Source: Clostridium sp.
GTDB taxonomy: Bacteria; Bacillota_I; Bacilli_A; RF39; UBA660
NCBI GenBank assembly: GCA_023665725.1
Contig: JAMPDH010000001.1
Location: 3,567-67,566 of the forward strand
Reading direction: 5' to 3'
Length of the DNA: 64,000 bases
The notes under the pieces were generated by a model. That model ran no database searches. It was not told where the DNA came from and saw nothing but the letters and a program-made list of their open reading frames with translations. The number at the start of each line of letters is the position of its first letter. The first letter of the stretch is position 1. Shown here piece after piece: positions 6,492-50,026 of this stretch. The position numbers and the translations under genes were made by a program.

Positions 6492-7682
6492 ATGTATAGA
6501 AAAACATTTATTGAGATTAATTTAAATAATTTATATAATAATGTTAAAAAATTAACGGATTTTTATAAATATAAATATTATATTGGTGTTGTAAAAGGGT
6601 CTTGTTATGGACATGGTGAATATATTGTTAATACATTGGTAGATGCAGGTATTAATTATTTAGCTATTTCATCATTAGAGGAGGCAATAAAATTAAGAAA
6701 ATATAATAAGGATACTCCTATTTTATGCCTTGAACCTATTGATATGGATTATTTAAATATATGTATTGAAAATAATATAGCTATAACTTTACATGATTAT
6801 AATTATTTTAAAGATTTAATTAATCTTAAATTAAATGGGGTTTTAAAAATACATTTAAAGATAGATACTGGTATGAATAGACTTGGCATAAAATCCTCGA
6901 ATCAAATTAATGAAATTTATAACAAATTGATTGAAAATAAGAATTTTTATTTGGAAGGAATTTATACACATTTTGGTACATCTGGTGTTTATGATAAAAC
7001 TTATGATAATCAAGTAGATAGATTTAATTATTTAACTAAGGATATTGATTTATCAAAGATACCAATTGTTCATTTAAATAAAAGTGTTAATGTACAAGCT
7101 CATACTAAAATGAACTATGAAACAGGAGTTAGACTTGGAATAGTAATGTATGGTTATAATCAATTAAATGGTCCAATGCTTAATACCTTTAGGCAAAAAT
7201 TGAGATATTATAGAAAAATATTTAGAAATAAAAGATTAGGTGTTTCTAAAACCATAAAAAAATGTAACCTAGAGTTAAAGCCTTCTTATAAATTAGTTAG
7301 TGAAGTAATTCAGGTTAAAAAAATTAATAAAGGTGATCATGTTGGATATGGAGAGGTTTTTACAGCTCAAAGTGATGGATATGTTGCAACTATTCCCATA
7401 GGGTATGCTGATGGGTTTAGTTTAGATAATACTGGTAGAACTATTTTAATTAATGATAAGCGATATAAAATTATAGATATTGTTATGATGGGAATGATTA
7501 CAGCGCTTGTTGATGAAACTGTTAAAGTACATGATAGAGTGGTTTTAATGGGTGATGATATATCTATTCTTGAAGTAAGTATACATAATCATTCAACTCA
7601 ATATGAAACTTTGTGTCGAGCAAATTCTAATGTGCCTAGAGTATATATTAAAGATAATAAAATTTTACATATAGAAGAATAG
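6492..7682 (+). CDS. alr: Alanine racemase
   Basis: 396 aa; PLP-binding N-terminal motif VVKGSCYGHG (cf. VVKANAYGHG); GGAGGG SD upstream. Confidence 0.85.
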   Translation: MYRKTFIEINLNNLYNNVKKLTDFYKYKYYIGVVKGSCYGHGEYIVNTLVDAGINYLAISSLEEAIKLRKYNKDTPILCLEPIDMDYLNICIENNIAITLHDYNYFKDLINLKLNGVLKIHLKIDTGMNRLGIKSSNQINEIYNKLIENKNFYLEGIYTHFGTSGVYDKTYDNQVDRFNYLTKDIDLSKIPIVHLNKSVNVQAHTKMNYETGVRLGIVMYGYNQLNGPMLNTFRQKLRYYRKIFRNKRLGVSKTIKKCNLELKPSYKLVSEVIQVKKINKGDHVGYGEVFTAQSDGYVATIPIGYADGFSLDNTGRTILINDKRYKIIDIVMMGMITALVDETVKVHDRVVLMGDDISILEVSIHNHSTQYETLCRANSNVPRVYIKDNKILHIEE

Positions 7683-7685
7683 GTA

Positions 7686-7722
7686 AAAAGTCTAAAAATT
7701 TGATATGTTTTTTAGACTTTTT
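7686..7722 (+). terminator. Rho-independent terminator of alr
   Basis: inverted repeat aaagtctaaaaa / tttttagacttttt followed by a T-run. Confidence 0.6.
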
Positions 7723-7776
7723 TTGATTTTACGTTTTGCTTTATTTTTAATCTTAGCAGTTGTTTTCTTTCTGAAT
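7702..7776. repeat. Direct-repeat copy 1 (about 70 bp), a duplicated 3' end of the thermonuclease gene
   Basis: nearly identical (1 mismatch over about 67 nt) to 8629-8703; minus-strand translation gives FRKKTTAKIKNKAKRKIKKSLK, the nuclease C-terminus. Confidence 0.8.
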
Positions 7777-7967
7777 ATTTTAACTCCTAATAATTCATAA
7801 ATCTTTAATTAAATATTTTTTCCTTTTTTATTCATAATATAACCCTTCTTTTTTAAAGTTCCTATATTAAAATTGAGAAACTATCCCGTGAAATTGGCTT
7901 ATATACTAACAAAAAAACTATAAAATGTCGTTTTTATTAGTTTACTACATCCTTTATTCTTTTTCTC

Positions 7968-7995
7968 TTGACAAAAATTAAAATTTGTGTAAAAT
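7968..7995 (+). promoter_or_regulatory. sigma-A-like promoter (TTGACA-N16-TgtgTAAAAT)
   Basis: consensus -35 plus extended -10, read directly from the sequence. Confidence 0.4.
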
Positions 7996-8023
7996 AATGT
8001 GTACACAAAGGAAGTAATATATA

Positions 8024-8052
8024 TTGACAAATTACAACCTTGTGAATATAAT
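8024..8052 (+). promoter_or_regulatory. Consensus sigma-A promoter TTGACA-N17-TATAAT (plus strand)
   Basis: perfect -35 and -10 hexamers with a 17-nt spacer; drives the plus-strand small RNA. Confidence 0.55.
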
Positions 8053-8058
8053 TAAATT

Positions 8059-8230
8059 AAGAATGAAGTGTAAGGGAGATTTTACATTAATTCGTATTAT
8101 ATTCATTAATTTGAATATAATAAAAAGAGATACACTTGATATTTGTGTGTTAGGTGTTATCTCTGTCCGAAAAAATTTTTAGACTTGGAAAACACCATAC
8201 TCAGCAGTTGAATAGGTGTTTTCTTTTTTA
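8059..8230 (+). ncRNA. Candidate small RNA (about 170 nt), antitoxin-like antisense partner
   Basis: bounded by the consensus promoter and the bidirectional terminator; contains the hairpin agagatacac...gtgttatctct; only a weak TTG-started 25-aa ORF inside. Confidence 0.3.
8170..8230. terminator. Bidirectional rho-independent terminator
   Basis: stem ggaaaacacc / ggtgttttcc with an A-run on the 5' side and a T-run on the 3' side, so it can terminate both strands. Confidence 0.55.
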
Positions 8231-8281
8231 GTCCTCTTTTAGTAAATAAATAAGTATTAGTATTATAACAATGTACTCCAT
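8228..8281 (-). CDS. 17-aa hydrophobic peptide MEYIVIILILIYLLKED (type I toxin-like candidate)
   Basis: ORF inside the minus-strand transcript; stop abuts the terminator; preceded by AGGAAA and GGAGGTG SD-like sequences; single TM-like helix. Confidence 0.3.
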   Translation of the reverse strand: MEYIVIILILIYLLKED

Positions 8282-8378
8282 AAATTTCCTGCAGTGGACA
8301 TCACCTCCGTTCTAATTTAAGAATAAAAATCAAAAAATGAACAGAGGAACACCTAACTATCTTGTGTATCTCTTAATC

Positions 8379-8407
8379 ATTATATTATTAATTTAATATA
8401 GTGTCAA
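8379..8407 (-). promoter_or_regulatory. Consensus sigma-A promoter TTGACA-N17-TATAAT (minus strand)
   Basis: revcomp of 8402-8407 is TTGACA; revcomp of 8379-8384 is TATAAT; 17-nt spacer; faces the plus-strand promoter. Confidence 0.55.
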
Positions 8408-8627
8408 TTAAAATAAGAACTATAGATTTGATTAAACAAGAAATATGTCCTATTTATGTCCTAAAATTTTAAATTATTATAATTTATAATTTGGCTAAAA
8501 ATGGTATATTTTGGATTACAAAAATGCAATACAAACTGTATTTTTATCTCTCCATAGAGTAACCAATTTAATTTTGAGTCTATATCATTTATCAAAGTTA
8601 AACTTAATTCTTGGCATATAACTAAAT

Positions 8628-9284
8628 CTATACATTTTTTAGACTTTTTTTGATTTTACGTTTTGCTTTATTTTTAATCTTAGTAGTTGTTTTCTTTCTG
8701 AAGGATTTAGAAAAAATACAACATACAATTATGACAATTAAACTTGATATAATTATTATGTAATTGGTATTATTATCTTCTTTTTTTTCATCGTTTTTAT
8801 TTTCACTCCAAATACCTATTTTTTGATATTCTGCGATTTTTTCATGATCTTTTAAAATACTTGTATATTTATAATCCCCATATAGATATGCAACTTCTGC
8901 AAGACCTTCTTTTATTAATGTATCTTGAAGTAATATATCATCTACCCATATCCATGCTAAATATCTATCATATTTATCTGTTTTAGAACTATTATCATCA
9001 AATTCTAATTCTATTTTAGTTGCATTTGTAAGTTTGCTGCAAGTAAATATACTTGCTTCCTTTCCGAATGATTCTACTTCTTTTTTTGGATGTACACTTT
9101 CTGGTGTATCTATAGCAAGAAATCTAACCTTTATAATATCGTTATTATAGTTAAAACTTGCAGTATCTCCGTCTATACATTTATTTAATGTAACTATCTC
9201 TTTTTCATAGGCTTTTACAATTAATGGTGTTGCTAAAATAAATACTAATAAAAATTTAAATACTATTTTTTTCATATACTTCAC
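8628..9284 (-). CDS. Thermonuclease (SNase-like, staphylococcal nuclease homologue) with C-terminal TM anchor
   Basis: 218 aa; signal peptide; SNase motifs DGDT ... RFLAIDTPE; C-terminal TM plus basic tail; 3' end coincides with direct-repeat copy 2 (8629-8703). Confidence 0.8.
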   Translation of the reverse strand: MKYMKKIVFKFLLVFILATPLIVKAYEKEIVTLNKCIDGDTASFNYNNDIIKVRFLAIDTPESVHPKKEVESFGKEASIFTCSKLTNATKIELEFDDNSSKTDKYDRYLAWIWVDDILLQDTLIKEGLAEVAYLYGDYKYTSILKDHEKIAEYQKIGIWSENKNDEKKEDNNTNYIIIISSLIVIIVCCIFSKSFRKKTTTKIKNKAKRKIKKSLKNV

Positions 9285-49586: not shown

Positions 49587-49663
49587 GGGCGATTAGCTCA
49601 GTTGGTTAGAGCACTTGCCTTACAAGCAAGGGGTCATAGGTTCGAGTCCTATATCGCCCACCA
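49587..49663 (+). tRNA. tRNA-Val (anticodon TAC)
   Basis: cloverleaf folded by hand; anticodon loop CTTACAA; 3' CCA encoded. Confidence 0.85.
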
Positions 49664-49672
49664 TTTTTATTT

Positions 49673-49748
<76 letters not shown>

Positions 49749-49756
49749 TTTTTTAT

Positions 49757-49840
49757 GGAGGGGTAGCGAAGTGGTCAAACGCGGCAGACTGTAAATCTGT
49801 TCCTTCGGGTTCGATGGTCCGAATCCATCTCCCTCCACCA
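49757..49840 (+). tRNA. tRNA-Tyr (anticodon GTA)
   Basis: anticodon loop CTGTAAA; long variable arm (class II); CCA encoded. Confidence 0.85.
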
Positions 49841-49853
49841 CTTTATTGTAGTT

Positions 49854-49928
49854 TGCCTCGTAGCCAAGCGGTAAGGCACCACACTTTGACTGTGGCATGC
49901 GCTAGTTCGAATCTAGCCGAGGCAGCCA
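49854..49928 (+). tRNA. tRNA-Gln (anticodon TTG)
   Basis: anticodon loop CTTTGAC; acceptor tgcctcg/cgaggca. Confidence 0.8.
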
Positions 49929-49950
49929 CTGTTATTATATATTTTAATAT

Positions 49951-50026
49951 GTCCCGTTAGCTCAGCAGGTAGAGCATTTGACTTTTAATCAAAGGGTCAC
50001 AGATTCGAGTTCTGTACGGGACACCA
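49951..50026 (+). tRNA. tRNA-Lys (anticodon TTT)
   Basis: anticodon loop CTTTTAA; acceptor gtcccgt/acgggac. Confidence 0.85.

Follow-up and report, generated by a model that had tools for sequence, protein, structure and literature searches.

The stretch of DNA analysed here (the window: 64 kb of a single contig from a metagenome-assembled genome (MAG) of Clostridium sp., 25% GC) holds an insert of 859 bp at the 3′ end of a thermonuclease (SNase) gene. The insert lies between two direct repeats of the last 68 nt of that gene and carries a small cassette, homologues of which sit beside the integrase attachment site (attP) of phages. The reading that we favour, with moderate confidence, is that a phage or phage-derived element inserted at the end of the nuclease gene and was then mostly deleted, the cassette being retained. 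Judged separately from the sequence, insertion of the attachment (att) type, by an integrase, seems very likely, and it seems fairly likely that the insert is a prophage remnant rather than a mini-element.

Duplication of the nuclease gene end

Two host genes converge on either side of the insert, alr on the plus strand and the SNase-family nuclease gene on the minus strand (Table 1). The end of the nuclease gene is present twice, as R1 next to alr and as R2 in the gene itself, in direct orientation and with a single mismatch over 68 nt (98.5% identity; E 1.4e-28, blastn). This bears out the repeats described in an earlier note, which was made from the letters of the sequence without database searches. 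A repeat search extends the match to 80 nt at 93% (7703-7782 / 8630-8709, spacing 927). The repeat is far beyond chance, and blastn found no third copy within the window. R2 comprises the last 22 codons of the nuclease gene, ending ...FRKKTTTKIKNKAKRKIKKSLKNV*. As the earlier note had also stated, R1 can still be read on the minus strand as the nuclease C-terminus (...FRKKTTAKIKNKAKRKIKKSLKNISNF, that is ...FRKKTTAKIKNKAKRKIKKSLKN(ISNF)); this reading has no start codon and meets a stop 12 codons upstream.

The repeats can be placed precisely with respect to host DNA. The alr terminator has its 5′ arm after the stop codon of alr, and its 3′ arm is the first 14 nt of R1, such that the original end of the nuclease gene overlapped the terminator of its neighbour. 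Because R1 completes this terminator and R2 continues into the body of the nuclease gene, the outer flanks of both repeats are host DNA, and the DNA added is therefore the 859 bp between them (7776-8634) plus one copy of the repeat. The right flank of the insert gives the nuclease gene its new end (..NV*, stop 8628-8630). The nuclease has a C-terminal membrane anchor and a lysine-rich tail (window 8628-8760), and the duplicated 68 nt encode exactly this tail; an anchor followed by a lysine-rich tail (FRKKT.NK.K.K.KK...) also occurs in most of the listed nuclease homologues P0002-P0120.

The ends of the insert (7776 and 8634) carry no terminal inverted repeats, the only long inverted repeat being internal (8087-8151 / 8348-8411). 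A transposon or miniature inverted-repeat transposable element (MITE) with target-site duplication was therefore rejected, the more so as the duplication is 68 nt, compared with 15 bp or less. The internal inverted repeat was likewise rejected as the termini of a MITE, because conserved promoters lie outside its arms and the arms are the 5′ ends of both RNAs described below.

The cassette in the insert and its homologues

The interior of the insert had been described as lacking open reading frames (ORFs). This is correct for ORFs of 60 aa or more (the largest is 52 aa), yet the interior holds a conserved ORF of 17 codons on the minus strand, which encodes the putative toxin peptide MEYIVIILILIYLLKED. 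The strong promoters and the terminator reported at the same time were found again, as three near-consensus sigma-70 promoters (11/12 for the first of a tandem plus-strand pair, 12/12 for the second and for the minus-strand promoter) and a strong hairpin, T1, bordered by an A run and, on the opposite side, by a T run. The two perfect promoters face each other, and the arms of the inverted repeat begin just downstream of them (8125-8151 / 8348-8374 in its shorter form). The plus-strand RNA from 8059 to 8232 has four strong predicted hairpins (z = -6.0). On the minus strand, a toxin-like mRNA would comprise a 5′ hairpin, CCUCUGUUC (8347-8339), an AU-rich loop, GAACGGAGGUGAUG (8312-8299), the ORF, whose stop codon lies 6 nt before the T1 stem, and T1 itself. 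A long form would reach a second terminator, T2 (8164-8118), made up of the antitoxin hairpin read in antisense and a T run.

Table 1. Features at the insertion site, in order of position in the window
Feature	Position	Strand	Basis
alr, alanine racemase, host gene left of the insert	6492-7682	+	ORF; Pfam Ala_racemase_N/C
alr terminator hairpin, 14-bp perfect stem (7685-7698 / 7709-7722), then T run	7685-7722	+	inverted-repeat search, sequence
R1, displaced nuclease 3′ end, attL/attR-type repeat	7708-7775	−	blastn, repeat search, translation
Left flank, 192 bp, about 20% GC	7776-7967		no homology to other family members
Tandem near-consensus promoters (7968-7995, 8024-8052) reading into the antitoxin-like RNA	7968-8052	+	promoter scan
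Antitoxin-like small RNA, own -10 TATAAT at 8116-8121, 5′ hairpin 8126-8164, end at T1	8126-8231	+	fold, alignment
Toxin-like mRNA, short form to T1	8183-8373	−	fold, alignment
T1, predicted bidirectional terminator common to both convergent RNAs (A run, stem, T run)	8187-8229		kept in 10/10 aligned members
Putative toxin ORF, MEYIVIILILIYLLKED + stop, 17 aa	8228-8281	−	conserved ORF
Putative toxin promoter, TTGACA-17-TATAAT, 12/12	8379-8407	−	promoter scan, alignment
Right flank, 223 bp, toxin promoter to R2	8412-8634		sequence
TATGTCCTA twice, 11-nt period, candidate arm-type integrase site	8444-8463		repeat scan, 0.2 expected by chance
Thermonuclease (SNase) gene, insertion target	8628-9275	−	ORF; Pfam PF00565
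R2, working 3′ end of the nuclease gene	8635-8702	−	blastn, repeat search, translation

Two further features of this region deserve mention. The Shine-Dalgarno (SD) sequence on the minus strand is unusually long (GGAGGTGAT), and the plus-strand sequence opposite it (8287-8316, CCTGCAGTGGACATCACCTCCGTTCTAA) at first sight resembles the 3′ end of 16S rRNA. We rejected it as a trace of a gutted rRNA operon: it is the complement of a 9-nt SD, no pairing resembling helix 45 is seen (judged only by eye), and Rfam reports no rRNA. Within the antitoxin-like RNA, all 14 nt of AAATTTTTAGACTT (8173-8186) are complementary to the 5′ arm and loop of the alr terminator (7688-7701), and this sequence repeats 11 nt of the left end of R1 and R2 (7709-7719, 8636-8646). 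It is specific to this locus, the other family members differing here, and by a rough estimate about 0.1-0.2 such matches are expected by chance. Elsewhere in the window, 12 tRNA genes are clustered on the plus strand (49587-51176).

The middle of the insert (approximately 8054-8395) is homologous to ten further distinct loci. The first of these, L010, was found with a pattern taken from the hairpin common to both arms of the inverted repeat, and pattern scans covered IMG/VR, GTDB representative genomes (a set without this genome) and JGI metagenomes. The family comprises L010, L016 (identical to L053), L026, L040 (identical to L051), L045, L046, L047, L050 and L052, together with L014, which has the antitoxin-like hairpin only. 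Viral contigs account for L010, L016, L026, L040 and L014, and MAG contigs for L045 (Clostridia), L046 and L047 (both Bacilli); L050, L051, L052 and L053 are metagenome contigs. The order of elements in L010 is that of the window, namely promoter, hairpin, CCTCTGTTCA, GGAGGTGATG, small hydrophobic ORF, terminator and convergent hairpin RNA. Tandem promoters are found at the corresponding place in L047, L016/L053 and L051, and the closest relative of the window cassette is that of L052 (79% identity). The flanks of the insert (7776-8053 and 8396-8634) match none of the family loci. As a separate observation, L014 carries at 8935-9050, after an amidase/LysM endolysin, the antitoxin-like hairpin RNA alone (promoter, AGAGATACAC... 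hairpin and own terminator), and no recognisable toxin partner lies beside it.

In an alignment of the ten members that have the whole cassette, including the window, several elements are invariant or nearly so: in the toxin promoter, the -35 TTG and the -10 TA...T; beyond it, the hairpin, TTCCTCTGTTCA, GAAYGGAGGTGATG, GGAGGTGATG, the start and stop of the ORF, the terminator, and the hairpin on the antisense side, including its A run. The invariance of the boxes is partly by construction, because the patterns used to find members demanded them. The peptides are MEYIVIILILIYLLKED (window), MEYIVLILILIYLLKKD (L052), MEYIVLILIFLYLLKSKD (L040), MNYIVLILILLYLLTH (L016), (M)METVIVILILLLLIILALKSKN (L026), METVILILILLLLIIVALKPMN (L050), MEIIIALALIFFTVVALKSKN (L010), MQLVVIALALIFYTVVTLKSKD (L047), MDTIVAFAFIVLLAIVAIKQKN (L045) and (V)ETLTAFAMIIFFIIVALKSKN (L046). 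They are 16-23 aa long and strongly hydrophobic (grand average of hydropathy 1.3-2.3), with charged ends in most members (K/D/N-rich), and their start, stop and position are conserved in 10/10.

Database searches placed the cassette in no described family. Rfam 15 gave no match in the region at E up to 10 and only chance hits in the window; for the nine related loci it gave nothing except tRNAs at gathering score. Neither the peptides nor the products of the leader ORFs described below had a hit in Pfam, NCBIfam or PHROGs below an E of about 0.01. A BLAST search of the interior, proposed in the earlier note, was uninformative as such: blastn with the interior and two other members returned only AT-rich Borrelia noise from GenBank phages and PLSDB plasmids. 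It was the pattern scans that found the phage-borne homologues. A stricter pattern yielded no extra members in IMG/VR, and most hits of a looser pattern, as well as the archaeal and actinobacterial ones, were dismissed as chance. From sequence comparison, the cassette appears to represent an undescribed family, similar to toxin-antitoxin (TA) loci of type I, from uncultured low-GC Firmicutes and their phages.

The phage-borne members share a characteristic setting. L051 has, in order, a tyrosine integrase (PF00589 plus an arm-binding domain), an attP region of about 370 bp, the cassette and, on the other strand, an amidase endolysin. Its attP core reads, on the other strand, ...CTCACCCGCTCCA (end ...CACCCGCTCCA), then a terminator hairpin, and two tandem 9-mer arm pairs, 190 bp apart, lie around it. 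L016 similarly has an integrase, repeats flanking ...CTCCTGCTCCGCCA plus a terminator, one ORF and the cassette; the last 8 nt of its attP-like core end, ...CTCCGCCA, are identical to tRNA-Ser gene ends. In L010, in L045 (a MAG contig bearing phage genes) and, as the antitoxin-like hairpin, in L014, the cassette directly follows an endolysin. It lies 0.15-0.7 kb from the core, with the toxin promoter toward attP. Since the cores consist of a tRNA-like 3′ end and a terminator, these phages would integrate into the 3′ ends of genes that have terminators.

In the attP regions of L051 (6513-6730), L050 (73-285) and L016 (5688-5903), 9-14-mers recur in tandem with a period of 11 nt and form two clusters, separated by about 190 bp, around the tRNA-like 3′ end and terminator. 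By their arrangement, these repeats are probably arm-type integrase sites. Two tandem pairs flank the core in L051 and L050; the insert in the window has one pair.

A second insert resembles that of the window. In L047 (671-1548), a Bacilli MAG from the Hadza gut and from a different study, the cassette lies in a gene-less insert of 770 bp between direct repeats of 54 nt (94% identity; 671-724 / 1495-1548), at the end of an array of six tRNA genes. The left repeat is made of the final 14 nt of tRNA-Pro(UGG) and its terminator; to the right of the insert lie host genes. An intact tRNA and the repeat precede about 150 bp of flank, after which come the tandem promoters, the antitoxin, the toxin, another 150 bp or so and the remnant repeat, which is the order predicted for a prophage of the L051/L016 type lacking everything from int to endolysin. 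The insert at the nuclease gene in the window is built alike, 223 bp separating its toxin side from R2. The orientation of the target fragment relative to the cassette is opposite in the two cases, suggesting that a different att/int module was involved in the window.

The parallel with L047 also bears on whether the duplication could be an artefact of MAG assembly, whether a wrong join across a short repeat or the mixing of several strains. The sequence is one contig of one MAG, and no second independent assembly of the species was present in the collections searched, as such an error would allow. Nevertheless, the two copies differ by one base, their flanks differ on both sides, the hybrid junctions make biological sense (a terminator on one side, an intact ORF on the other), and an unrelated MAG from a different study has matching architecture. 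We consider an artefact very improbable.

Two other chromosomal copies have no flanking repeats and no phage genes nearby. L046 (3053-3911) occupies an 859-bp intergenic region between recA and cotE in a Bacilli MAG from rabbit gut, and L052 (9020-10588) a gene-less stretch of 1.4 kb between tRNA-Lys(CTT) and tRNA-Lys(TTT). The cassette thus stands alone, without phage genes, at four chromosomal sites (the window, L047, L046 and L052).

RNA fold and putative toxin-antitoxin design

We examined the fold of the ten toxin-sense transcripts from their start to the T run of T2, which assumes read-through of T1. Individually, all ten fold alike, with the 5′ end paired to the 3′ end (helices 1 and 2). 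In helix 3, CCUCUGUUC pairs with GAAYGGAGG in 10/10 members, and helix 4 is formed by UGUYC, immediately downstream of the SD, and GRACA close to the 3′ end. When the fold is laid on the alignment, 99.1% of cells are paired (98-100% across the covarying helices). None of 500 shuffles reached the values of this fold, and sliding the partners by 1-3 columns lowered pairing to 39-53%. Compensatory changes on both sides occur in 10 pairs, seven of them in helix 1 (12 bp), one in helix 2 and two in helix 4.

We read the covariation of helix 1 as pointing to selection on a fold-back of the hok type in the read-through toxin transcript. However, helix 1 is the inverted repeat of the DNA, so its covariation also means that both RNAs of a locus start with identical sequence, and a constraint on the repeat at the level of DNA could account for it too. 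Helix 4 argues for a constraint on RNA: in the window, L052 and L040, the segment after the SD has changed together with the distal segment, and the other arm of the inverted repeat is unchanged. Helix 3 hardly varies (8/9 pairs are constant and the other changes on a single side), so covariation neither supports nor contradicts sequestration of the SD. Complementarity between the 5′ parts of the two RNAs, of the kind known from par, was no better than in shuffles.

Other features fit a locus controlled by antisense RNA. The convergent -10 element, 5′ hairpin and bidirectional terminator, from which transcription of the antisense RNA is predicted, are kept in all members. A leader ORF is present in 9/10, with an ATG 8-9 nt after GGAGG and a length of 39-56 codons, and overlaps the peptide ORF; it is poorly conserved as protein and so behaves as a leader of the mok type. 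Among the ten, the window copy alone lacks the leader ATG, having CTG instead (8292-8308, minus strand). Taken together, this design makes it reasonably probable that the cassette is a type I TA locus, consisting of a putative toxin peptide and an antisense RNA.

A different function for the peptide, as a small phage membrane protein (for example in lysis or superinfection exclusion) with an antisense regulator, or a pair of small RNAs with an incidental ORF, is a less probable alternative that nonetheless deserves weight. The toxicity of the peptides is putative, they are very short and match no known toxin family in Pfam, NCBIfam or PHROGs, and a position after the endolysin is usual for accessory ('moron') genes of phages. 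Set against this, peptide length, start, stop and a hydrophobic-then-charged pattern are kept while the DNA diverges, and the layout is that of known type I systems, with a strong toxin promoter, an SD predicted to be sequestered, a convergent antisense RNA, a shared terminator and several antisense promoters (PMC3834814, PMC6563280). Persistence of the cassette at the four chromosomal sites that lack phage genes also speaks for the TA interpretation.

Origin of the insert and comparison with known systems

These results suggest the following course of events. A temperate phage or phage-derived integrative element would have entered the last 68 nt of the nuclease gene by site-specific recombination. 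From the anatomy of the site and from the homologous phages, its attP would have carried a copy of the 68 nt, so that integration rebuilt the nuclease gene (..NV*) and left the old end (..NISNF*) as the second repeat. Nearly the whole element would later have been deleted, leaving the two att repeats, flanks of about 190 and 220 bp, and a cassette of about 0.35-0.45 kb whose place in related phages is between endolysin and attP/integrase. In the cassette, a strong promoter would drive an mRNA for the 17-aa hydrophobic peptide, and a convergent small RNA, with its own promoter and two more upstream, would overlap the 3′ end of that mRNA at the shared bidirectional terminator. The strong SD-like GGAGGUGAU of the mRNA is predicted to pair with the upstream CCUCUGUUC, and a read-through mRNA could fold its 3′ end back on its 5′ end, as in hok. 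If the cassette is addictive, cells losing it would be killed, and the surviving deletions would be those that keep it.

The suggestion in the earlier note, that an insertion into the 3′ end of the nuclease gene brought the gene end with it or regenerated it, is thus supported by the host DNA outside both repeats, by the phage homology of the core of the insert, by the phage attP sites with a tRNA-like 3′ end and terminator, and by the parallel of L047 with its 54-nt repeats. Several points nevertheless weigh against a reduced prophage. In the flanks, no integrase, lysin or other phage coding remnant is detectable (tblastn, E about 1 or worse); two collinear weak tblastn hits to one integrase (E about 1; two phage integrases as queries) turned out, when inspected, to be noise. 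The flanks have no other match among GenBank phages, PLSDB plasmids and the family loci, and neither the 68-nt repeat nor that of L047 was found as an attP in IMG/VR. No empty site was found, since the nearest nuclease homologue among 5.8 billion proteins has 62% identity, and alr is missing from its neighbourhood; nor was the same duplicated alr-nuclease arrangement, or an interior conserved as an ordinary intergenic region, seen among these homologues. That two independent inserts should both be cleanly stripped of every gene is unlike the commonest outcome of deletions with random end points. The sequence is a single MAG contig without close relatives. As to the cassette, the 17-aa peptide is shorter than those type I toxins of B. 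subtilis and C. difficile that a review lists (28-60 aa; PMC6563280), and without a leader ATG the putative toxin of the window may be poorly translated or decaying.

The duplication might instead have arisen by homologous (RecA, Campbell-type) or illegitimate recombination, through a single crossover with a circular fragment sharing about 70 bp of the nuclease end or a local rearrangement that copied the end of the gene. A single crossover within the 68 nt of homology would yield exactly this structure, and the insert holds no integrase (ORF scan, tblastn) and has no cognate attP in IMG/VR. What such recombination leaves unexplained is why the cargo should be the very cassette that phages keep beside attP, why the L047 case should lie at a classic integrase target (a tRNA 3′ end and terminator), and why the ends of the repeats are sharp. 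We regard it as unlikely.

Alternatively, the insert could be a complete, non-autonomous mini integrative element of about 0.8-0.9 kb, made up of an attP region and an addiction cassette, with a helper integrase acting in trans and the toxin-antitoxin pair holding the element in place. The two inserts are indeed alike in design at different targets (68-nt repeats, an interior of 859 bp and flanks of 192/223 bp in the window; 54-nt repeats, 770 bp and about 150/about 150 bp in L047), and neither holds a gene fragment. The flank lengths fall within the range of the attP arms of L051, and with repeats 98.5% and 94% identical the insertion events look recent. However, the tandem pair TATGTCCTA is the sole candidate arm-type pair in the insert and lies on the toxin side only, as against a pair on each side in the phage attP regions. 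No motif common to both flanks rose above shuffles in the window or in L047, the flanks of the two inserts are unrelated to each other and to the phage attP regions, and there are just two cases, the chromosomal copies L046 and L052 having no repeats. A mini-element is accordingly rather improbable as an explanation of the insert. It is slightly less probable still that the window and L047 represent a complete class of integrase-less elements below 1 kb that use temperate phage integrases to enter gene 3′ ends and are held there by addiction; if true, that class would be the counterpart of MITEs in the world of integrases.

The putative cassette can be compared with known type I systems, beginning with par (fst/RNA II) of the Enterococcus faecalis plasmid pAD1. 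There, the toxin mRNA and the antitoxin RNA converge on one bidirectional terminator and 5′ structure limits translation; because the DNA carries the 5′ repeats in direct orientation, the two RNAs are complementary in that part. Convergence on a bidirectional terminator and a 5′ structure that would limit translation are shared by the cassette, but its 5′ repeats are inverted in the DNA, such that the RNAs are identical there and complementarity arises in cis within the read-through transcript. It also lacks the Fst motif and any Pfam match. Ibs/Sib of Escherichia coli, a proteobacterial system, combines almost purely hydrophobic toxins of 18-19 aa with the fully overlapping antisense RNA Sib. 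Our peptides are likewise very short and of similar hydrophobic composition, but the RNAs overlap in part and the only Rfam SIB hit is at chance level (E = 7). In hok/mok/sok of plasmid R1, Sok pairs at the 5′ leader and Hok is a proteobacterial protein of about 50 aa. The cassette resembles it in the predicted long-range 5′-3′ fold-back of the full-length toxin mRNA, the overlapping leader ORF with a strong SD (9/10 members) and the presence of an antisense RNA, and differs in that the antisense RNA overlaps the 3′ end, no Hok_Gef match exists and the window copy has no leader start codon. The distribution of hok/mok/sok has been described (10.1101/2025.08.07.668861).

Among Gram-positive systems, bsrG/SR4 and txpA/RatA are type I TA loci of Bacillus subtilis carried by SPbeta and the skin element (PMC3834814, PMC6562991). 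They share with the cassette a prophage location, convergent RNAs (predicted in the cassette) whose 3′ ends overlap, and a small hydrophobic peptide that ends in a charged C-terminus; their SD is held in structure, as is predicted for that of the cassette. They show no relationship to it in sequence, Rfam or Pfam, their peptides have 38-59 aa as compared with 16-23 aa, and it is in the cassette that both RNAs begin with the same hairpin sequence and a leader ORF overlaps the toxin ORF. Type I TA systems of Clostridioides difficile prophages have been shown to stabilise them (PMC7699646, PMC6563280), which is the role we propose for the cassette, likewise phage-borne; their toxins (34-59 aa) are unrelated in sequence and are often tied to CRISPR arrays or riboswitches, not to attP. 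Searches of Rfam 15, Pfam, NCBIfam and PHROGs gave no match to Fst, Ldr, Hok, Ibs, TisB, TxpA/BsrG or the antitoxin RNAs of Rfam. More generally, prophages and remnants resembling them are known to harbour type I TA loci, by which they are stabilised (PMC7699646, PMC6563280, PMC6562991, PMC3834814).

The insert as a whole recalls cis-mobilisable elements (CIMEs), att-flanked and integrase-less elements described for streptococcal integrative and conjugative elements (ICEs) (PMC6323972, PMC5704250). As in CIMEs and prophage remnants, one of the direct repeats is the 3′ end of the target gene, no recombinase lies inside, and the interior would derive from an integrating element. The insert is far smaller (0.86 kb), its origin would be a phage rather than an ICE, its sole recognisable content is an RNA-controlled, toxin-like cassette, and mobilisation is hypothetical here. 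A prophage remnant or CIME-like insertion at a gene 3′ end is thus already known (PMC6323972, PMC5704250); what is new is the cassette family itself, together with the extreme reduction seen twice. The predicted hallmarks of the family are peptides of very small length, a 5′ hairpin that is identical in both RNAs, a covarying fold-back, a leader ORF and a constant position beside attP, and the cassette thereby joins traits otherwise found apart in par, bsrG/SR4 and hok/mok/sok.

If our reading is correct, the two inserts show, in unrelated genomes, how far a prophage can shrink, down to its att repeats and one small cassette. It would also follow that in this lineage the 3′ end of a protein gene, that of the thermonuclease, serves as an integration site in the manner of a tRNA gene. 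Finally, should the cassette prove to be an addiction module, such scars would constitute natural evidence that TA loci dictate which parts of a prophage can go.

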